Source: Candidatus Kapaibacterium sp. (lineage in GTDB: Bacteria > Bacteroidota > Ignavibacteria > Kapaibacteriales > UBA2268). Taken from it: a stretch of DNA of 64,000 bases. This document shows, piece after piece, positions 10,671 to 56,681 of this stretch. Within the stretch, counting starts at the first letter, position 1. Every line of letters starts with the position of its first letter. The DNA lies in the NCBI GenBank assembly GCA_963665665.1, contig OY762428.1, positions 3,008,001 through 3,072,000 of the forward strand, written 5' to 3'. Position numbers and translations under genes: made by a program. A model generated the notes under the pieces. That model did no database searches and was not told the DNA's origin. It was given only the letters and a program-made list of their open reading frames with translations.

Positions 10671-10710
10671 AAAAAACCTTCCGAAGTGTATAATTCTTCG
10701 GAAGGTTTTT
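10671..10710. terminator. Bidirectional terminator between convergent genes
   Basis: aaaaaaccttccgaag...cttcggaaggttttt. Confidence 0.85.
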
Positions 10711-10738
10711 AAATCTTAATAACTATTTCAGGCAGAAA

Positions 10739-11467
10739 TTATATCGAAGTTTCGTAACCGGCATCTTTCATTTTCTGGTCACGCGCTTCTTTAATAAGAA
10801 CTTCTGCAATGTGCCTGTCCATGGGTGTTGTAATTTTCAGGTTATTATCATCGCCGTCAATTACCTGTACTTTATAGCTCATGAATTCTACAAGTGATGC
10901 ACTGTCAGTACCGATAAATCCTGCTTTGGTTGCATTCACATAAGCATTGTAAATAAGTTCCTGCCAGAATCCCTGCGGAGTTTGTACCATTTTCAGGTAT
11001 TCGCGGCGCATTGTTTTTAGAACAGTACCCTGCTTTGTAACTTCCTTGATAGTTTCCTTTGGAGATAGTGCCGGAATAACGGCTCCGAATTCTTCTGTTT
11101 GTTCAATGATTTTCTTTACGAGTGCCGGAGTGGCAAGAGGCCTGACAGCATCGTGTATAAGAACGATATCGGATGATTCTGCCGAGGCTGTTTCCAGGCC
11201 GTTTAGTACTGAGTGCTGCCTTGTTTCGCCGCCTTCAATTATTTCCCTGACTTTTGTAAGCTTGTACTTAATTGCCATTTCCCGCATTTTATTAATGTAT
11301 TCCTCATGAACCGGCAAAACAACATGTTCCACTTCAGGGCACATTTCAAATATCCTGATAGTATGAACAATTACTGGAGCGCCGTCAATTTCGATGAACT
11401 GTTTGGGAATGTCTGCCCCAAACCTGCTGCCGACGCCTGCTGCCGGTATTATCACACTTGTTTTCAT
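10739..11467 (-). CDS. ispD: 2-C-methyl-D-erythritol 4-phosphate cytidylyltransferase
   Basis: PAAGVGSRFG..PKQF, GGETRQHSV, IHDAVRP, QTPQGF and NLKITTP motifs. Confidence 0.95.
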   Translation of the reverse strand: MKTSVIIPAAGVGSRFGADIPKQFIEIDGAPVIVHTIRIFEMCPEVEHVVLPVHEEYINKMREMAIKYKLTKVREIIEGGETRQHSVLNGLETASAESSDIVLIHDAVRPLATPALVKKIIEQTEEFGAVIPALSPKETIKEVTKQGTVLKTMRREYLKMVQTPQGFWQELIYNAYVNATKAGFIGTDSASLVEFMSYKVQVIDGDDNNLKITTPMDRHIAEVLIKEARDQKMKDAGYETSI

Positions 11468-35238: not shown

Positions 35239-35496
35239 TTAAGTTGCCCCGTTTCCTAAAGAACAAGGAGTGTTAACTGATACTCCTGCAGAACATGCGG
35301 CAATAGTTGTATATTTTGCGTTTCCGTCATTAAAGATTTGATCAACATTTGTAACTCAGGAACCGAAGTTGCAATAAGCAGATGCATTATTTCCACCTGC
35401 ACATTTGTTTCCGATTTATGCTGCTTCGGACCCATTAACACATAATTGCCCGGAATTTTCATTAAGTACTCTGATCATTAATTTTCTGTACTTCAT
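35239..35496 (-). pseudogene. Degraded CxxG-repeat RiPP precursor homologue (two in-frame stops)
   Basis: AAGGAG RBS, then ATG at 35496. Translates MKYRKLMIRVLNENSGQLCVNGSEAA*IGNKCAGGNNASAYCNFGS*VTNVDQIFNDGNAKYTTIAACSAGVSVNTPCSLGNGAT*, the same architecture as the peptides at 48038, 50027 and 54756. Confidence 0.8.
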
Positions 35497-48037: not shown

Positions 48038-48271
48038 ATGAGTTTTAAATACAAAAAACCAGAATTGAAAGTATTAAATGATGATTCGATGTTATTTTGT
48101 AATAACGGAACATCGGCTCAAGCTGTCGGGCCGTCATATCAATGTATATCAGGAACTTCAGTCAATCCGGTACTTTGCACCGACGGTAGCACAAATGACG
48201 GGGTTTTTGTTCAGTGCGACAGCGGTGGATCTGCATTTGGTTTTGCCTGCGCAGTCGGCGGAACAGATTAA
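48038..48271 (+). CDS. Putative RiPP precursor peptide 1 (YxxP leader, 5 CxxG)
   Basis: MSFKYKKPELKVL leader; CNNG, CISG, CTDG, CDSG, CAVG; first gene of the radical SAM cluster. Confidence 0.82.
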   Translation: MSFKYKKPELKVLNDDSMLFCNNGTSAQAVGPSYQCISGTSVNPVLCTDGSTNDGVFVQCDSGGSAFGFACAVGGTD

Positions 48272-48368
48272 TCAGCTTTGATCATTGTAATAAATATTGA
48301 CCAATGTTATAAAATATTTTGTGTATAGATAATAAAACAGCGTGAAAAAAGTTTGAAATTAAGAATAA

Positions 48369-48403
48369 AGCCGTATTTGAATGTTACGGCTATTTTTTTT
48401 TTT
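48369..48403 (+). terminator. Terminator between precursor 1 and the maturase genes
   Basis: agccgta...tacggct followed by a long T-run. Confidence 0.65.
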
Positions 48404-48459
48404 ATTAAATTATATGTTTAAAAAGTAGTAATGTATTTACAACAATAAATGAGGCAGAA

Positions 48460-48744
48460 ATGGCAAACAACCCTATTGCAAACCCGATGATAGTTCACAG
48501 GGTGGAGGATGATGACTGGGCGGTTCTATTTGATCCCGACGCTAACGAAACTTACGCTCTCGATCCTGTTAGTTCTTTTGTGTGGCAATTATTGGACGGT
48601 AAGCACAGCAAGGAAGAAATTCTGGCAAAACTGGAAAAAGAATGTGAGGATGGAATTCCCGAAGAAGCTGCAACAGACCTGGATGAGTTTCTTACAGAAC
48701 TGGAAGCAAAAGCTCTTGTTGGATACGAGCAGGCAATTGGTTAA
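48460..48744 (+). CDS. scmD: PqqD-family RiPP recognition element (SynChlorMet ScmD)
   Basis: DDWAVLFDPD....YALDPVSSFVWQLLDGKHS.EEI...DLDEFL..L....L, the PqqD/RRE pattern; directly precedes a radical SAM gene. Confidence 0.88.
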   Translation: MANNPIANPMIVHRVEDDDWAVLFDPDANETYALDPVSSFVWQLLDGKHSKEEILAKLEKECEDGIPEEAATDLDEFLTELEAKALVGYEQAIG

Positions 48745-48746
48745 TT

Positions 48747-49880
48747 ATGAAAATTGAACGCACTCCTAAAAGCCTTGACCTTGAAATTACAAGCAAGTGC
48801 AACCTAAGGTGTTCTTATTGCTCTCACTTCAATAGCGAAGGTGATACCGATACCGATTTAAGCACTGATGAATGGCTGCAATTCTTCGAAGAGCTGAAAG
48901 AATGCAACGTTATGGATGTTACTCTTTCTGGTGGCGAACCATTCATGAGAAAAGATATCCGTATCCTGCTTGACGGGATAATAAAAAATAGAATGAGGTT
49001 CGGATTTCTTACGAATGGTATTCTTTTTAATGATGACCTGGCTGAATATATTAAAACAACAGGCCGATGCAACAGTATCCAGGTTTCAATCGACGGCCCC
49101 GGCCCTGAAATTCATGATGCTTCGCGTGGTAAGGGAAGCTTTGAAAAAGCAATCGCCGGGCTTAAAACGATAATGAGACACGGCCTTCCTGCCACGGTAC
49201 GTGTTACGATAAACAAGCACAACTATAAAAAACTTCCTGAAATAGCTGAAATGTTGCTTGAAGAAGTAGGGCTTCATTCATTTTCAACAAACGCAGCTTC
49301 TCATCTCGGGCTTTGCCGTACTAATAAAGACGATGTTCAGCTTGGTGTGGAAGAATATACTGAATCAATGCAGACGATATTTACACTTGTTGAAAAGTAT
49401 GGCAACAGGATAAATGCCCAGGCAGGCCCTCTTGCATCAGGCAAGCAATGGATGGAAATGGAAAAAGCCCGGCAGAATAATTTAGATAATCTTCCCGGAT
49501 GCGGATATCTTACAAGTTGTGGCGGGATTTTCGCAAAAATGGCAATTCAGGCTGACGGATCAATGGTACCGTGTTCGCAGTTGCCGCACATGAAACTTGG
49601 TAAGGTCAACGTGGACAGCCTTGCAGATGTATGGCTGAATCATCCTGAGCTTAAACGCCTGCGTGAAAGAAGAGATATTCCGCTTGGTACATTTGACTCA
49701 TGCAAGGGCTGTTCGTATATACCTTATTGCAGGGGCGGATGCCCGGCACTGGCATATACCCTGAACGGAGATGAGAATGTTCCTTCTCCGGAATCATGCT
49801 ACAGGAATTTTCTTGCTGCGGGTGGAAGATTGCCGGTTTTAGATGATAACGAGCCATTTTTTAGTCCGGGATGTTGCTGA
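48747..49880 (+). CDS. scmE: Radical SAM/SPASM peptide maturase (SynChlorMet ScmE)
   Basis: RTPKSLDLEITSKCNLRCSYCSHF (CxxxCxxC), GGEP; SPASM SCGG...VPC...CKGCSYIPYCRGGC...C. Confidence 0.88.
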   Translation: MKIERTPKSLDLEITSKCNLRCSYCSHFNSEGDTDTDLSTDEWLQFFEELKECNVMDVTLSGGEPFMRKDIRILLDGIIKNRMRFGFLTNGILFNDDLAEYIKTTGRCNSIQVSIDGPGPEIHDASRGKGSFEKAIAGLKTIMRHGLPATVRVTINKHNYKKLPEIAEMLLEEVGLHSFSTNAASHLGLCRTNKDDVQLGVEEYTESMQTIFTLVEKYGNRINAQAGPLASGKQWMEMEKARQNNLDNLPGCGYLTSCGGIFAKMAIQADGSMVPCSQLPHMKLGKVNVDSLADVWLNHPELKRLRERRDIPLGTFDSCKGCSYIPYCRGGCPALAYTLNGDENVPSPESCYRNFLAAGGRLPVLDDNEPFFSPGCC

Positions 49881-50026
49881 TGAAAATAAAATTTAGCATC
49901 ACTATCTTAAATATATACCAAACATAAAATACGTTTCCTGGATAGTTTGGTTTAACAGTGGATTAAATATAAATATTGTTTTTTGAATTTGTTCATTACA
50001 GTAAAAATTTTGAAAATTGGATTATT

Positions 50027-50302
50027 ATGAAAAAGAAATTTAGCTATACCAGACCATCGCTATCATCATTGTCAGATGAAATATCTCAATTCTGTAATGT
50101 AGGAACAGGAGCAACTTTAGCTGATACTCCTGCTATTCAGTGTACTGTTGGTGGGGATGCACAGCTGATTTGTGTTGCCGGTACCGGTTTTTCCAGTACG
50201 TATCCACATTGCGCTAATGGCCCTGCTGATTCAAAACTTGCATGTTCAACAGGATCAGGGGACACTAATCCCAGCTGTAATGTTGGCAATTCACCAGTTT
50301 AA
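50027..50302 (+). CDS. Putative RiPP precursor peptide 2 (YxxP leader, 6 CxxG)
   Basis: ATG at 50027: MKKKFSYTRPSL leader; CNVG, CTVG, CVAG, CANG, CSTG, CNVG; lies between the two radical SAM genes. Confidence 0.82.
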   Translation: MKKKFSYTRPSLSSLSDEISQFCNVGTGATLADTPAIQCTVGGDAQLICVAGTGFSSTYPHCANGPADSKLACSTGSGDTNPSCNVGNSPV

Positions 50303-50329
50303 TATATTAACAATAAATACTTAATAATT

Positions 50330-51460
50330 ATGAGCGAAGAAAAAAATACAGAATTTAAAGTACCGGAATGCGGTTATCCGCTGAGCCAGATATATTTTTA
50401 CATGACTGAAGGATGCAACCTGAAATGCCGTCACTGCTGGATAGAACCGAAATTCCAGGCTTCCGGCAATAGTAAATGGCCCTCTATTGAGTTTGACCTT
50501 TTCAAGGATATATGCTATCAGGGCAGGGAACTTGGAATGAACTCAGTTAAACTAACCGGCGGGGAGCCACTGATAAATCCTGATATTGACAAAATACTTG
50601 ATTTCATTTATGAGGAGAAGTTCAGGCTGACAATTGAAACTAACGGCATCGAACTGACACCTGAAATTTGTGAAAAGATTGCCCGGTGTGAAGGCACTTT
50701 TGTTTCAATCAGCCTTGATGGCTCAACAGCAGAAGAACACGAATGGGTTCGCGGTGTTCCGGGTTGTTTCGAAGCAGCATTGCAAGGCGCACGGAATCTT
50801 GTAGCCGTGGGAATAAGGCCGCAGTTTATAATGTCGATAATGAAAAGGAATGCACACCAGATAGAAGATATTATTGAACTTGCCCGGAAAGAAAACGCCG
50901 AGTCGGTTAAATACAACCTGGTAACACCTACTGCACGTGGGGAGCAAATGCACGAGGCTGGCGAAACTCTGTCGATTGAAGAATTGATCCGTATTGGTAA
51001 ATGGGTGGAAGATGAATTGCAGCCAAAGTACAAAGATGTCAGGCTTCACTATTCTCATCCGGTTGCTTTCAAGCCTTTTGGCAAAATGTTTGAAAGACCA
51101 TTGGGACGTTGCGGTATATTCGGTATTATCGGAGTGCTCGGAAATGGTAAATATGCTCTTTGCGGTATCGGTGAAACTGTCCCTGAACTTGTTTTCGGCG
51201 ACGCGAGAAAAGATAAACTCGCAGATGTTTGGAATAATAACCAGGTACTTAATGATATTCGTAAAGGCTTACCAAAAGATTTGAATGGTATTTGCGGGGA
51301 TTGTCTCGTTAAAAACAAATGCCTTGGTTCCTGTGTAGCCATGAATTATTATCGTCATCACGATCTGTTTGCTCCTTTCTGGTATTGCGAGGAAGCACTT
51401 AAAGCCGGACTTTTCCCCAAAACCAGGATCAAGCCGGGATCGCCATTTGAAAAGGTATAA
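50330..51460 (+). CDS. scmF: Radical SAM/SPASM peptide maturase (SynChlorMet ScmF)
   Basis: YPLSQIYFYMTEGCNLKCRHCWIEPKFQ, GGEP; SPASM CGIFG...ALCGIG...CGDC.....CLGSC...C. Confidence 0.88.
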   Translation: MSEEKNTEFKVPECGYPLSQIYFYMTEGCNLKCRHCWIEPKFQASGNSKWPSIEFDLFKDICYQGRELGMNSVKLTGGEPLINPDIDKILDFIYEEKFRLTIETNGIELTPEICEKIARCEGTFVSISLDGSTAEEHEWVRGVPGCFEAALQGARNLVAVGIRPQFIMSIMKRNAHQIEDIIELARKENAESVKYNLVTPTARGEQMHEAGETLSIEELIRIGKWVEDELQPKYKDVRLHYSHPVAFKPFGKMFERPLGRCGIFGIIGVLGNGKYALCGIGETVPELVFGDARKDKLADVWNNNQVLNDIRKGLPKDLNGICGDCLVKNKCLGSCVAMNYYRHHDLFAPFWYCEEALKAGLFPKTRIKPGSPFEKV

Positions 51461-51472
51461 AACAAATACTAA

Positions 51473-53281
51473 ATGCGTTTATGGTATAAATATCTGAAGC
51501 AGGGGCTTTCCCGTAAGCTGCCTGTCGATAAGTTCAATGAAGAATCGAACTACGGCAGGCTCAGGGATAATATTAAACTATTATTTCCTCCGATAAAAAA
51601 ACACTGGAAGGCCGGGCTGATATCAATGTTTGTTCTGGTTCTGTCATCAGTCCTGACTTATCCCCTGCCAATGATAAACAAATATTTTATCGATGACGTT
51701 TTGCTGAAAAAGAGGATTGACCTTGTTGTTCCGGTAGTATTACTATTAACGGGAATTGGCCTTGCTTCGTATCTGACGGGCGTGTTGAAAGGCTTTTATA
51801 ATCAGCGATTCACACAGGAAGTGATACTCGATCTGCAAAAGACAATGATCGATAAGGTTTTGTCACTCCCAAAATTCTTCTTTGATAAAAATCGATCCGG
51901 CTATCTTATGTCAAGGATATCCGGAGATGTTCACGGTGTAAACTGGTTTCTTTCCGGCCCTATGGTTCAAATGTTTCTCCAGGCTATGAAATTCATTGGT
52001 GGTGTTTATTTCCTGATATTCCTGGAATGGCGTCTGGCAATTCCGGTTATTCTTACCTTGCCGATACCATTTTTCGCAATGCGTTATTTTGCTAAGCGGT
52101 CTTATATTATGAGCCATTATACCAGCGAAATGAATGCAAAAACAAACGCCAGCCTGCATGAAACTGTTAATACTGTTTCTCTTATTAAATCTTTTGCCAA
52201 CGAGAAAAAAGCATCAAAGTCCCTATTCAGGATGTTGAGAAAAAAAGTTAACATCGGGTATGAACAAAACAGTATGAATTCTCTTAGCAGTTTGATCAAC
52301 CAGCTAATGCCACAGGTTGCCAAATTTGCTGTTATGCTTTTTGGCGCTTACTGGGTAATCAGCGGCGAGTGGCAATTGGGATCTCTTATCGCTTTCCAAT
52401 CATACTTATCCTACGTGTACGGGCCGGTAAATCAGCTTTCTTCCAGTATGAACCAATTGCAGACAGCCCGGGCAACAATGGACAGGGTTGCTACTATTCT
52501 CGGAATGGATTCCGAAGAGAATACTGACAGCGGAGATGAAATTACGAAACTGACCGGAAGCATAGAATTTGATAATGTAAGCTTCGGGTATGATAAGAAA
52601 AAACCTGTTTTATCTAATCTTTCCTTTAATATAAAAGCAGGGGAACAATGGGCTGTGATCGGCCCAAGCGGTATTGGTAAAACGACGCTTATCAGCCTGC
52701 TTTTAAAATTTTATTCCACTGATTCCGGAGATATTCTATTTGATGATAAGTCCTGTAAAGATATCAATGTGCGTTCTTTAAGAAGAAGGCTTGGCTATGT
52801 GGCACAATCAACGAGCCTGCAAACAGGAACAATTCTGAAAAATCTGAAATACGGAAATCCCGGAGCAAGTGTAGAAGATATAGTTAAAGCAGCAAAGATT
52901 GCCGGAATTCATGAATTTATTGAAGAACTGCCCGAAAAATATAATACCCATATAGAAGAAGGCGGCGCTAACCTTTCCGAAGGCCAGAAACAAAGGCTTT
53001 CTATTGCAAGAGCTCTTGTTCTGAATCCTGATATTTATATACTGGATGAACCAACTGCTTCAGTAGATAACCTGACTGAACAGTCAATTTACAAAGCTCT
53101 TCCTGAAACAATAAAAAATAAGACAACAATCACTATAGCACACAGGTTAAATACTATTAAATCAGCAGAAAAAATATTATTTTTGAGAAAGAATAAAATT
53201 CCTCTTATCGGTTCACATAATGAATTGAAAGGCGATGATGATTACATGGAATTTTTCGAAACTATAAATAATTGTAACTGA
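51473..53281 (+). CDS. ABC exporter (fused TMD and NBD), no C39 peptidase domain
   Basis: 6-TM region; Walker A GPSGIGKT, signature LSEGQKQR, Walker B ILDEPT, H-loop IAHRL. Confidence 0.92.
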   Translation: MRLWYKYLKQGLSRKLPVDKFNEESNYGRLRDNIKLLFPPIKKHWKAGLISMFVLVLSSVLTYPLPMINKYFIDDVLLKKRIDLVVPVVLLLTGIGLASYLTGVLKGFYNQRFTQEVILDLQKTMIDKVLSLPKFFFDKNRSGYLMSRISGDVHGVNWFLSGPMVQMFLQAMKFIGGVYFLIFLEWRLAIPVILTLPIPFFAMRYFAKRSYIMSHYTSEMNAKTNASLHETVNTVSLIKSFANEKKASKSLFRMLRKKVNIGYEQNSMNSLSSLINQLMPQVAKFAVMLFGAYWVISGEWQLGSLIAFQSYLSYVYGPVNQLSSSMNQLQTARATMDRVATILGMDSEENTDSGDEITKLTGSIEFDNVSFGYDKKKPVLSNLSFNIKAGEQWAVIGPSGIGKTTLISLLLKFYSTDSGDILFDDKSCKDINVRSLRRRLGYVAQSTSLQTGTILKNLKYGNPGASVEDIVKAAKIAGIHEFIEELPEKYNTHIEEGGANLSEGQKQRLSIARALVLNPDIYILDEPTASVDNLTEQSIYKALPETIKNKTTITIAHRLNTIKSAEKILFLRKNKIPLIGSHNELKGDDDYMEFFETINNCN

Positions 53282-53284
53282 CAG

Positions 53285-54160
53285 ATGCAGCAGGCAAAAC
53301 AAATAGAACAATTTTATCTGAAACTTTCGGATGGCAGCAAATGGGGATTCAATTCAGCTCCTGAATTGAAAGAATGGTTTAGCATATTTGCCAGAATAAT
53401 GTCTTTGAAAAAAGATAACTCTGATGTGGATTATTTGTTTAATATCCGGCCCAAAAACGGAAGGGAAATTCCTGCCGGAGTTGATGAAAGCTGGGATTCT
53501 TTCAGGCAAAGCGGGGCATATACTATATGGAGCAAAAAAGGGGAAAAACAGTTTTTAATTGAAATAAACAAAGAGTTTATCGACCACCCCGAGATTAGAG
53601 TGATAAATATGTGGTCAACATTGAAGGCTCTATATAAATTTTATGCTGAGAACGGTGGAGGCCCGGTTCATAGCGGAATGGCAGCCCTGAATGGCAAAGC
53701 TATACTGATAGCTGCCCCGGGGGGTACCGGGAAATCAACATCCATACGCAGGCTGCCGGATTATTGGAAAAAAATGTGCGATGACACAACCCTGATAGTA
53801 AAAAAAGATGATAATTTCTTTGTTCATCCCATGCCTACATGGAGTGACCATCTATGGGAGCATAATTTTACTACTTTCGATACTTCAAGGGGATTCCCAT
53901 TAGCAGCTGTTTTCTTTCTGAAGCAGTCCGGCACTGACAAAGTTACCCCGATTTCCAGGCCTGAAGGCATTCAGTTGCTTTTAAGTTCAGTTAAACAGGT
54001 TTTTCAAACTTATGTTGATAAGTTGAAGGATAATGAAAAGTCTGAAATGGCTATGAAACTGTTTGATAACACCTGTAATATTGTTGGAAAAACACCATGC
54101 TACAGGCTTGAAGCTACATTGAACGGGGATTTCTGGGAAGAAATTGAAAAGGTATTATAG
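53285..54160 (+). CDS. scmC: HPr-kinase-related P-loop protein (SynChlorMet ScmC)
   Basis: LKLSDGSKW N-terminus; VHSG, Walker A GGTGKST, DD motif, HPMPTWS, C-terminal FWEEIEK. Confidence 0.82.
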   Translation: MQQAKQIEQFYLKLSDGSKWGFNSAPELKEWFSIFARIMSLKKDNSDVDYLFNIRPKNGREIPAGVDESWDSFRQSGAYTIWSKKGEKQFLIEINKEFIDHPEIRVINMWSTLKALYKFYAENGGGPVHSGMAALNGKAILIAAPGGTGKSTSIRRLPDYWKKMCDDTTLIVKKDDNFFVHPMPTWSDHLWEHNFTTFDTSRGFPLAAVFFLKQSGTDKVTPISRPEGIQLLLSSVKQVFQTYVDKLKDNEKSEMAMKLFDNTCNIVGKTPCYRLEATLNGDFWEEIEKVL

Positions 54161-54759
54161 TGGAAAAGCACAAGCCGCAATATAATACAAGTGTCGGGCC
54201 AAGCATGTACCCGACAATGAAAAGCGGCGATGCATATATCCTTAAAGAAATATCTTCTATTGATGAAATATGCCGGGGAGATGTAATTGTTTTTCCCCAC
54301 CCTGACGAACCAATTAATGTTGTTCACAGAATTATTAGGATTTATCCCGAAGGTTTTCAAACCAGGGGAGATAATAATAACCGTAAAGATCCCTATATTG
54401 TGAAAAAGGATGATATTATCGGTGTGGTGGGCAAGGTTATCAGGAAAAATAAAAGATATACTATTCATGGCGGAAATGCGGGATTATTCATCCACAGGAT
54501 GGCTTGGGCCAGGAAATATTCCCGGCCCTATATTGTAAAGCCACTGAAGTTTTTATTGAATTTGCTGATCAGATCAAAAATATTCTTCATTTTCGGAAAT
54601 TTCTTTTCAACTTCAATCACAAAAATTAACCGAATGGGTTCCGAGCAATTTATCTTAAGTGTAAATAAAAAACCGGTTGGAAAAAAAGAATCAAAGGAAT
54701 CTGCGTGGATAATTAGTTTCCCTTATAGTTTGTTTATTAATCCGAAGAAATTACCATGA
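54160..54759 (+). CDS. S24/S26-family peptidase (Ser-His type), candidate leader peptidase
   Basis: GPSMYPTMKSGD, GDVIVF, VVHRII and TRGDNN...D motifs; no N-terminal TM; GTG start overlaps the scmC stop. Confidence 0.82.
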   Translation: MEKHKPQYNTSVGPSMYPTMKSGDAYILKEISSIDEICRGDVIVFPHPDEPINVVHRIIRIYPEGFQTRGDNNNRKDPYIVKKDDIIGVVGKVIRKNKRYTIHGGNAGLFIHRMAWARKYSRPYIVKPLKFLLNLLIRSKIFFIFGNFFSTSITKINRMGSEQFILSVNKKPVGKKESKESAWIISFPYSLFINPKKLP

Positions 54760-54980
54760 AATACCGAAAACCAAAAATATACAGACTTTTCCCATCGAAA
54801 ATAGACATAAGCGCCTGTATGGACGGTGAGCAGGCTTCGAGCATGGCCTGCGTATCCGGCCCGGAGGCATCCAGCGGGTGTAAAACCGGGGCTGCTGCCG
54901 GTACGGCATGTAAGGATGGTTCCGCTGCCGGATTCAGTTGCAACAGCGGTGCAGGATTCGAGGAATGGGAAAGGAAGTAA
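54756..54980 (+). CDS. Putative RiPP precursor peptide 3 (YxxP leader, 5 CxxG)
   Basis: MKYRKPKI leader; CMDG, CVSG, CKTG, CKDG, CNSG at 11/10/10/10 spacing; ATGA overlap with the peptidase stop. Confidence 0.82.
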   Translation: MKYRKPKIYRLFPSKIDISACMDGEQASSMACVSGPEASSGCKTGAAAGTACKDGSAAGFSCNSGAGFEEWERK

Positions 54981-55034: not shown

Positions 55035-55814
55035 ATGAAAATATCAATATTAACCGAAAATACAGCAGCGCCTTATTTCCTTGCGGAATTTGGTTTTTCA
55101 TGCTTTATAGAAACAAACGGGAATAATTTTCTTTTTGATTTAGGCGCCACGGACATTTATCTGAAAAATGCCGAAAAACTTGGCATTGATATAGATAATT
55201 GCAATAATGTTATTCTCAGCCATGGCCACTGGGATCATGGAAACGGCCTTAAATACATTAAGGGAAAAAATCTATTATGTCATCCGGGGGCTTTTCGTAA
55301 AAGATACCACAAAGGTGATGATAATAATATCGGCCTTGAAATGACTAAAGAAGAAATTGAGACAAATTTCTGCCTGACAAGCTCGGCGAAACCATATTAT
55401 ATTGATGAAAATATAATTTTCCTTGGAGAAATTCCCAGGCTGAATGATTTTGAATCAAAGGAATCAGATTTTATACTCTCCGACGGAAGCGAGGATTTTG
55501 TAAGTGATGATACCGCCATGGCCATTGTTGAAGACGGCAGGCTAATCATCATTTCCGGGTGCGCCCATTCCGGAATTTGTAATATTATAGAATATGCGCG
55601 TAATATTTCCGGCATTTCGGACGTGAAAGCTGTGCTGGGCGGCTTCCATTTAAAAAATGAAAACCGTCAGTTGGATGAAACAATTAAATATTTTAAAAAA
55701 TTAAATGCAAAGCAGCTTTATCCCTGCCACTGTACTCAATTGCCTGCTATGGCAGCTTTTTATAACAATTTTAAAATTAACAGGATAATGGCAGGAAACA
55801 CATTGGAAATTTAG
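55035..55814 (+). CDS. MBL-fold metallo-hydrolase (COG1237-like)
   Basis: LFDLG, LSHGHWDHGNG, GCAHSGI, GGFHL and PCHCT motifs. Confidence 0.9.
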   Translation: MKISILTENTAAPYFLAEFGFSCFIETNGNNFLFDLGATDIYLKNAEKLGIDIDNCNNVILSHGHWDHGNGLKYIKGKNLLCHPGAFRKRYHKGDDNNIGLEMTKEEIETNFCLTSSAKPYYIDENIIFLGEIPRLNDFESKESDFILSDGSEDFVSDDTAMAIVEDGRLIIISGCAHSGICNIIEYARNISGISDVKAVLGGFHLKNENRQLDETIKYFKKLNAKQLYPCHCTQLPAMAAFYNNFKINRIMAGNTLEI

Positions 55815-55823
55815 GAAAATAAA

Positions 55824-56681
55824 ATGAAAACATATATTGATTGTATTCCATGCTTTATGAACCAGGCGCTAAGGGCCGGAAGAATATCCACAAGCGATGA
55901 TATAATACTTAAAAAAATAATGGATAACGTAGGCGGGAAGCTGAAAGATGTATCCCTTACCGAAGTACCGCCCCGTTCGGCAATGATCATATACGATGAA
56001 ATATTTCGCCAGACGGGAATAGAAGACCCTTACAAAAAAATCAAAAAGGAAAGTATAGACCTTGCTAAAAGTATTCTGGGGCAAATCAGAAATATGGTGG
56101 AATCTGCCCCCGACCCGTTACTTGCTGCCGTAAAAGCAGCAATTGCAGGTAATATTATTGATTTTGGTGCCTGCGAGGATTTTGATATTAAAAAGGATGT
56201 AAAGGCATCTATGGATATGGACTTATCTATAAACGATTATGAGGTTTTCAAAGAAAAAATAAATTATGCACGTACAGTCCTTTACCTTGGGGATAATGCC
56301 GGGGAAACTGTTTTTGACAGGTTGCTAATCGAGAATATTGACGCAAGGGTGGTTTATGCTGTCAGGGAGAAACCTATTATCAATGATGCAGTGATAGAAG
56401 ATGCAGTTGATTCCGGCCTGGCCGATATATGCGAGATAATTTCTTCAGGCAGTACTGCTCCTGCAACTATTCTTGAAGAATGTAATGAACGGTTTTTAGG
56501 TCTTTATCACGGCGGAGCTGATATTATCATCAGCAAAGGGCAGGGAAATTACGAGAGTTTATCTGATAGTAACGAAAATATTTTCTTCCTTCTTAAAACT
56601 AAATGCAGCGTTATTGCCCGCGACCTTGATACCGAAACAGGTGCACTTGTATTGAAAGCCGGTAAAAATTATGATTTGTAA
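55824..56681 (+). CDS. ARMT1-like/DUF89 damage-control phosphatase
   Basis: DCIPC, AGNIID, DNAGETVFD, INDA, KGQGNYESL and KTKC motifs. Confidence 0.9.
   Translation: MKTYIDCIPCFMNQALRAGRISTSDDIILKKIMDNVGGKLKDVSLTEVPPRSAMIIYDEIFRQTGIEDPYKKIKKESIDLAKSILGQIRNMVESAPDPLLAAVKAAIAGNIIDFGACEDFDIKKDVKASMDMDLSINDYEVFKEKINYARTVLYLGDNAGETVFDRLLIENIDARVVYAVREKPIINDAVIEDAVDSGLADICEIISSGSTAPATILEECNERFLGLYHGGADIIISKGQGNYESLSDSNENIFFLLKTKCSVIARDLDTETGALVLKAGKNYDL

Follow-up and report, generated by a model that had tools for sequence, protein, structure and literature searches.

In a 64,000-nucleotide stretch of a Candidatus Kapaibacterium sp. genome (the window), the locus at positions 48038-54980 is assigned by its gene families to the SynChlorMet (SCM) cassettes, a computationally defined set represented by the NCBIfam models TIGR04248-TIGR04252 (ScmD, ScmC, ScmE, ScmF and ScmA). 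Three small peptides encoded in this locus, A1, A2 and A3, appear to be SynChlorMet-type precursors of RiPPs (peptides made on the ribosome and modified after translation), and we favor, with confidence slightly short of even, the interpretation that they are matured to strings of small rings, each closed by a bond between a Cys sulfur and the alpha-carbon of a Gly (a sactionine). Coordinates are window positions unless a value in Mb or a locus name is given. The three peptides, read from their open reading frames (ORFs) and motif counts, are these:

48038..48271, + strand: precursor A1, 77 aa, leader YKKPEL (residues 5-10), 5 Cys, all CxxG
50027..50302, + strand: precursor A2, 91 aa from its ATG, leader YTRPSL, 6 Cys, all CxxG (a longer TTG-start version of the ORF begins at 49976)
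54756..54980, + strand: precursor A3, 74 aa, leader YRKPKI, 5 Cys, all CxxG

The most obvious feature of these peptides is the relationship between Cys and Gly: a Gly lies at position +3 after 16 of 16 Cys. An earlier note, made from the sequence alone, had described this pattern, the three leaders and the richness of the cores in Ser, Thr, Ala and Gly, and the reading of the ORFs bears out all three points, with each core consisting of 47-54% of these four residues. The pattern is far outside what composition would give, as 20,000 within-peptide shuffles yielded a mean CxxG count of 2.1 (sd 1.3) and a maximum of 9, and at the 16.1% Gly content of the cores the probability of 16 in 16 is about 2e-13 under independence. 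Pairwise identity among the three peptides is 32-34%.

The same relationship is found well beyond the window. A sample of 401 genomes from the window's phylum contained eight with a ScmE match over the cut-off, seven of these eight in one family, and an equally large sample (401) from the phylum of a second locus, L004, contained 21. A further 46 loci were collected, making 47 with that of the window, and many of the 46 show the gene order ScmD-ScmE-ScmF-ScmC-S26(-ABC). Because circularity was to be avoided, Gly was kept out of the selection of family precursors, for which the leader motif and the number of Cys were the sole criteria. Specifically, a loose leader motif was present in 130 ORFs, and 35 of them had an extended leader and at least three Cys. 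These 35 hold 190 Cys, of which 160 are in CxxG, 25 in CxxxG only and 5 in neither, with four of the last five in one opposite-strand ORF taken as spurious; 2,000 shuffles of the same ORFs gave a mean CxxG count of 34.9 (sd 5.1) and a maximum of 50. Conservation of CxxG in orthologous loci, on which the earlier note had staked its proposal, therefore held.

The invariance claimed for CxxG stood for the window and, very nearly, for the peptides of this genome that share its leader (70 of 73 Cys); it did not stand across the family, where Gly is at +3 after 84% of Cys and at +4 only after another 13%. Cys-to-Cys spacing is 10 or 11 residues in 121 of 155 intervals, and as a family these peptides follow C-x(2,3)-G, with a unit length of 10-11 residues. 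Within a unit, positions +1 and +2 are highly variable (no residue exceeds 16%), +4 and +5 are often Ser, Thr, Asn or Gly, and after the +3 Gly the strongest constraint is at +6 (Ala 43%, Pro 23%). In an alignment of 40 peptides, the leader Pro and the Cys/Gly pairs were the sole invariant or near-invariant columns, and A1-A3 have these columns in common with the precursors of related loci. A leader-free scan yielded peptides in six more loci, such that a Cys/Gly peptide, including two with only two Cys, is present at 33 of the 47.

Ten further ORFs with at least three Cys and without the extended leader were set aside. Eight of them have zero or one CxxG; one, at L156 12933-13148, is a plain A3 homologue with 5 of 5 Cys in CxxG, lying after the peptidase gene, and another, at L002, resembles a broken precursor. 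At L002 8001-10265, ScmE and ScmF are each in two pieces and a nearby leader-bearing ORF has lost its core of Cys/Gly pairs; either the cassette is decaying or the assembly is in error here. At L163, a long Thr-Gly dipeptide run stands between a YESPTV leader and the CxxG units (10705-11193, - strand) and a second precursor-like ORF has a long Thr-Gly dipeptide run upstream of its CxxG units (2057-2581, - strand).

The remaining genes of the cassette are assigned as follows:

48460..48744, + strand: ScmD, discrete PqqD-family RiPP recognition element (RRE), 94 aa (TIGR04248, PF05402)
48747..49880, + strand: ScmE, radical S-adenosylmethionine (SAM)/SPASM enzyme, 377 aa (TIGR04250, 546.8 bits, cut-off 400)
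50330..51460, + strand: ScmF, second radical SAM/SPASM enzyme, 376 aa (TIGR04251, 519.5 bits, cut-off 400)
51473..53281, + strand: MsbA-like ATP-binding cassette (ABC) exporter, 602 aa (ABC_membrane and ABC_tran over the Pfam cut-off)
53285..54160, + strand: ScmC, P-loop protein with a PEP carboxykinase (PEPCK)/HPr-kinase fold (TIGR04249, 227 bits, cut-off 125)
54160..54759, + strand: archaeal/SipW-type signal peptidase I, family S26 (TIGR02228, 70.7 bits, cut-off 51.85)

Three of the five SCM component models were thus passed (ScmE, ScmF and ScmC), ScmD fell slightly under its cut-off and ScmA was not matched. Genes for an MBL-fold hydrolase and a DUF89-like protein lie directly downstream (55035-56681), and they were left out of the cassette because they have no counterpart at the other 46 loci. 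Between 47700 and 55200, neither promoter-like sites (28, against 23.2 in shuffles) nor terminator-like sites (3, against 6.1) were in excess.

It is useful to begin with the step by which the peptides would be recognized. ScmD has TIGR04248 as its top match, full-length at 85.8 bits and below the cut-off of 100; it is above the cut-off of the Pfam PqqD model PF05402 (E 1e-15) and also matches the lasso PqqD model (E 7.8e-6). The leaders of A1-A3 read Y-x-x-P-x-[L/I], which falls within [Y/W]xxPx[L/V/I/F/A], the motif bound by discrete lasso-type RREs according to PMC13381572; that report also describes the LPP family, a non-lasso system in which YxxP is essential for binding the RRE and in which Tyr versus Trp helps RREs to distinguish cognate leaders. 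The proposal that these are lasso-type RRE-binding leaders is consistent with this match and with the position of the PqqD-family ScmD gene, which adjoins peptide genes. All precursor leaders in seven genomes of one family (L094-L100) use Trp (WxxP); Tyr (YxxP) leaders are found in the window's genome and in the second phylum. Modeling of ScmD bound to a leader, a check suggested by the earlier note, was carried out with residues 1-36 of A1, both partners being entered as alignments, and the complex scored 0.39 in three concordant runs, as compared with 0.02 for the best of three controls. The locus shares with lasso systems the YxxPxL leader and the B1-type/PqqD-type RRE; neither a B2 cysteine protease nor an Asn-synthetase-like macrolactam cyclase was found among the ten proteins scanned between 48038 and 55814.

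The two enzymes to which ScmD would present the peptides both contain Radical_SAM and SPASM Pfam domains and are only distantly related, with ScmF reaching just 83.3 bits on the ScmE model. The nearest solved sequence to ScmE is the sactisynthase SkfB (6efn, E 3.3e-22), and the nearest to ScmF are BlsE, then SkfB and CteB (E 1e-12 to 3e-7). The combination used as a criterion for sactipeptides, a radical SAM enzyme with a SPASM or twitch domain plus an RRE, is present here in both enzymes and the discrete PqqD protein.

Given such enzymes, the layout of the cores limits the bonds that could be made. The Cys are evenly distributed through the core and the last lies 5-16 residues before the C-terminus. 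A nested hairpin was considered and rejected, since Cys that run evenly to so near the C-terminus make that topology unlikely. The shortest tail ends one residue beyond the Gly, so a downstream acceptor must be within five residues; the only conserved residue within reach is Gly, which offers only its alpha-carbon. Hence a link from Cys sulfur to Gly alpha-carbon appears to be the most economical chemistry for these repeats, judged from sequence and by analogy. The chain of small rings that the earlier note suggested in place of a nested hairpin is a topology that already exists in streptosactin. PMC8172795 describes un-nested i to i+3 sactionines in that peptide, between Cys25 and Ser28 and between Cys31 and Gly34. 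Compared by description, streptosactin and GggB ('type II') resemble the SCM system in having sequential small rings from sulfur to alpha-carbon, formed from Cys-x-x-Ser and Cys-x-x-Gly units; they differ in having two rings rather than 5-12, a single radical SAM enzyme and a streptococcal, quorum-regulated cluster. Likewise, StsA was shown to carry three Cys-to-Gly sactionines, which its conserved Cys and Gly had predicted, and BlaA two, and StsC is a discrete RRE (PMC10288494). The StsA/StsB and BlaA/BlaB pairs thus share with the SCM system a one-to-one match of conserved Cys with conserved Gly; they differ in the core, CxCxCx4GxGxG with nested hairpin connectivity, and StsB is MftC-like.

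The mobility of the Gly between +3 and +4 can also be taken as a sign that the sulfur is bonded elsewhere, to a beta- or gamma-carbon as in ranthipeptides or to the alpha-carbon of a variable neighbor, with the Gly providing just a turn or steric clearance. Freyrasin, the product of PapB, is akin to the SCM peptides in its repeated short Cys-x3-Asp unit, each closed to a small thioether ring, and differs in that the bond is to the Asp beta-carbon. Classic sactisynthases tolerate many acceptor residues, and ScmE and ScmF fit the ranthisynthase model PapB and the structure of CteB about as well as they fit sactisynthases. GggB and QmpB, which are sactisynthases of the non-hairpin kind, are similar to ranthisynthases (PMC10288494). 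We nonetheless consider such a thioether unlikely, given the variability of +1 and +2 and the scarcity of other acceptors where the tail is no more than Gly and one further residue. Furthermore, the ranthisynthases studied so far require, to our knowledge, a fixed acceptor residue.

Several observations weigh against rings from Cys sulfur to Gly alpha-carbon, and we collect them here. On the side of the peptides, the change of Gly offset from +3 to +4 implies either a flexible ring size or that Gly is not the acceptor; the precursors of a second cassette in this genome (described below) have 15 of 26 Cys in CxxxG only, often as C-x-x-N-G, and 11 in CxxG; and no CxxG peptide was found in the DNA collected for 14 of the 47 loci, some of which are on short or cut contigs and four of which (L152, L154, L158 and L161) are ScmE-only. 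The NCBIfam precursor model for ScmA (TIGR04252, 49 positions) does not match A1, A2 or A3 at E <= 10, whereas it gives 87.6 bits to a seed-like peptide at L094, 28.7 at L004, 21.8 at L100 and 15.2 at L093; scans of A1 against NCBIfam and Pfam gave no match. The model of ScmD with the leader has a partner pLDDT of 53, and the tool's own verdict was 'weak support'. On the side of the enzymes, the top NCBIfam matches of ScmE beyond its own family are WgkB, the heme b synthase AhbD, GeoRSP and ACGX, with the sactisynthase models ranked lower (StsB 104.5 bits, cut-off 625; SkfB 96.9), and the top such match of ScmF is AhbD; taken by themselves, these family similarities appear to indicate no particular chemistry. 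The six catalytic-site proximity positions, read by hand via motif landmarks, are S,S,L,S,S,Q in ScmE and W,T,E,S,G,I in ScmF, and they match neither of the two published profiles covered by the comparison, CteB (F,F,T,S,H,Q) and StsB (Y,T,I,S,K,L), both from PMC10288494. In addition, a single thioether per unit leaves the conservation of two distant radical SAM/SPASM enzymes unexplained, and the searched literature yielded neither chemical data on, nor a described product of, any SCM cassette.

Some of these points are shared by a quite different interpretation in which the Cys remain as thiols, disulfides or metal ligands. The CxxG unit would then be a repeated structural element, in a small peptide that is solenoid-like or binds metal, and the radical SAM enzymes would carry out epimerization, C-C cross-linking or chemistry at the +6 Ala or Pro. 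The period of 10-11 residues with its semi-conserved +6 position does resemble a structural repeat, two different radical SAM enzymes suggest more than one reaction, and the best matches of ScmE and ScmF outside the SCM families are not thioether synthases. Against this, a thioether is the dominant known outcome for RRE-dependent radical SAM/SPASM pathways with Cys-rich cores, 3,421 sactipeptide and ranthipeptide clusters being predicted by a scoring tool (PMC10288494), and the one-to-one pairing of Cys with Gly recalls the logic of StsA and BlaA; we therefore hold unmodified Cys to be quite unlikely.

Returning to the sactionine interpretation, the other conserved members of the cassette suggest what else may befall the peptide. 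ScmC has no Pfam match. Its AlphaFold (AF2) model has a pLDDT of 89.7 and can be superposed along its entire length on PEP carboxykinases (Z 13.4 and 11.8), while residues 123-291, the C-terminal half, resemble four chains of HPr kinase/phosphatase (HprK/P; Z 9.2-9.7), and the G-x-G-K-x-T columns of the P-loop are invariant in its alignment. On the strength of these structural matches ScmC is placed in the P-loop kinase fold, and it is probably a peptide kinase. The S26 protein, which also matches the SipW model (E 1.4e-9), is by analogy probably the leader peptidase. For the exporter, no peptidase family was among the six Pfam matches listed; in NCBIfam, TAP2-type and MsbA models are among the top matches, all of which are below cut-off.

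The analogy is with the LPP family, characterized in 2026, in which, according to PMC13381572, the leader is cut by LppS, a SipW-type peptidase, and a core Ser is polyphosphorylated by LppK, an HprK-like kinase, with poor leader cleavage when phosphorylation is lacking. This precedent suggests that ScmC may phosphorylate the peptide and that the S26 enzyme may remove the leader. The SCM cassette has the SipW-type signal peptidase I, discrete RRE and MsbA-like exporter of the LPP chassis, together with an HprK-like kinase that is recognized, in ScmC, by fold only. The two systems also differ: LPP clusters come from Bacillota, include an NTP transferase (a family absent from the NCBIfam and Pfam scans of the SCM cluster), lack radical SAM enzymes and have cores that are not Cys/Gly repeats, and their leader is longer, YxxPxVLxHQxIxFETxxS, of which A1-A3 carry just the YxxPx[L/I] part.

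The presence of a kinase-like protein also invites a lanthionine-like route, in which ScmC would phosphorylate a Ser or Thr after the Gly, the phosphate would be eliminated and the Cys would add to the dehydro residue. Both the conservation of this HprK-like P-loop protein and the frequency of Ser, Thr, Asn or Gly at +4 and +5 fit such a route. We regard it as very improbable, however, because units such as CTVGGD, CANGPA, CVSGPE and CKTGAA have no Ser or Thr at +4 or +5, no lyase or cyclase family was found by NCBIfam or Pfam among the ten scanned proteins and the two radical SAM enzymes would be left without a role.

Taken with the sactionine interpretation, the cassette would work in the following way. 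The N-terminal [Y/W]-x-x-P-x-[L/I/V/M] leader would dock on the discrete PqqD-type RRE ScmD, which would hand the core to ScmE and ScmF. The core would be read as tandem 10-11-residue units that fit C-x-x-G-[G/S/N/T]-x-[A/P]-x-G-x, and in each unit the Cys sulfur would most likely be bonded to the alpha-carbon of the +3 Gly (+4 in some relatives), so that 5-6 small sactionine rings would follow one another un-nested. The HPr-kinase-like ScmC would probably phosphorylate the peptide, the SipW-type peptidase would cut off the leader, and the MsbA-like ABC pump would export the product. One enzyme set would act on many cores.

The last of these steps can be considered in light of the distribution of precursors in this genome. 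There is a second SCM cassette at 1.44 Mb (L093, G000:C1:1431000-1450000), which additionally contains genes for a second HprK-like protein, a sulfotransferase and a third radical SAM protein. With a profile made from the 40 aligned peptides, 22 matches were obtained in this genome as compared with 1, 3, 3 and 2 in four comparison genomes, a count somewhat biased toward this genome since 15 of the 40 peptides are its own. One of the 22 matches is broken, leaving about 21 intact peptide genes, which fall into two leader classes. These and the copies outside the window cassette are as follows:

35239..35496, - strand: broken fourth precursor copy of the window, with two in-frame stops (TAA, TGA), found as a profile match
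Leader class 1, MKYxK[P/L]xL: 15 intact, of which 3 belong to the window cassette, 6 lie at 1.483-1.491 Mb and 6 are elsewhere
Leader class 2, Y-x-x-PEV-x-x-F-x-WM: 6 intact, 4 in the second cassette and 2 at 5.279 Mb
Precursor-like genes outside the window, examples: G000:C1 1483260-1491329, 1862387, 2398884, 3327265, 3824542, 4952715, 5279456-5279959 and 5344156

The broken copy retains an MKYRKL leader, and its 5 Cys are all still in CxxG. Outside the window there are 18 precursor-like genes, four in the second cassette and 14 orphans that occur singly or in small groups; the six class 1 orphans at 1.483-1.491 Mb are flanked by housekeeping genes, namely those for pyruvate:ferredoxin oxidoreductase, rubrerythrin, ferritin and Nuo subunits. 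Twelve of the 15 class 1 copies are thus outside the cassette, and the 70 of 73 Cys in CxxG given above come from 13 of the 15 peptides; in class 2 the figure is 11 of 26, the other 15 Cys being CxxxG only. From this distribution, leader class and motif variant alike appear to be particular to each cassette. In a control across the whole genome, 243 small ATG-start ORFs have the loose leader motif and 66 of them at least three Cys; these 66 split cleanly into 15 in which the motif takes in all or most of the Cys and 51 in which it takes in few. The idea that divergent cores under one enzyme set form a natural combinatorial library is supported by the 22 matches and extended by them from three peptides to the genome. 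The prochlorosins, lanthipeptides made by the LanM enzyme ProcM, are a known case in which a single enzyme handles tens of precursors that are dispersed and combine a conserved leader with hypervariable cores.

One can imagine a fuller version of the scheme. In it the products would be 'beads on a string' poly-sactionines of 5-12 tandem rings from Cys sulfur to Gly alpha-carbon, each ring of four or five residues and placed every 10-11 residues; ScmF would make a second radical modification in each unit, perhaps at the +6 Ala or Pro; phosphorylation by ScmC would gate SipW-type cleavage; and the approximately 21 cores would form a leader-addressed library in which the two leader classes are kept apart by two cognate RREs, with two ring-size grammars (CxxG and Cx2-3G). 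As a complete account this is doubtful.

It is also worth considering how much of this was known. The SCM cassette is already catalogued, its definition reportedly originating with Haft and Basu in 2011, and the topology of small un-nested rings exists in streptosactin. The locus resembles the catalogued system in the gene order seen at related loci and in having precursors with the leader motif and Cys/Gly pairs in common; it differs in that its precursors have no TIGR04252 match, ScmD is under its cut-off and the genome has two cassettes with 22 precursor-like copies. In the literature searched, no paper used the SynChlorMet name or the TIGR numbers, and ScmE combined with radical SAM gave unrelated papers. 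Relative to that literature, the explicit substrate grammar with its period, the two variants of the grammar, the link to the LPP chassis and the 22-copy expansion are new. A1-A3 are divergent members of the precursor family, recognized by the grammar and missed by the ScmA model.

The name of the SCM cassette has stood in annotation databases for more than ten years, and there is now a concrete substrate rule for it: a [Y/W]xxPx[L/I/V/M] leader followed by C-x(2,3)-G units, each of 10-11 residues. This rule catches precursors that the curated ScmA model misses, and it ties the cassette to two recently characterized systems, the un-nested Cys-Gly sactionines on the one hand and the peptidase-RRE-kinase-pump chassis of LPP on the other. 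The genome, which holds about 21 cores in addition to two cassettes, two classes of leader and two variants of the motif, amounts to a natural experiment, well suited to the study of chemistry and substrate tolerance in what may be a tandem-ring thioether system.

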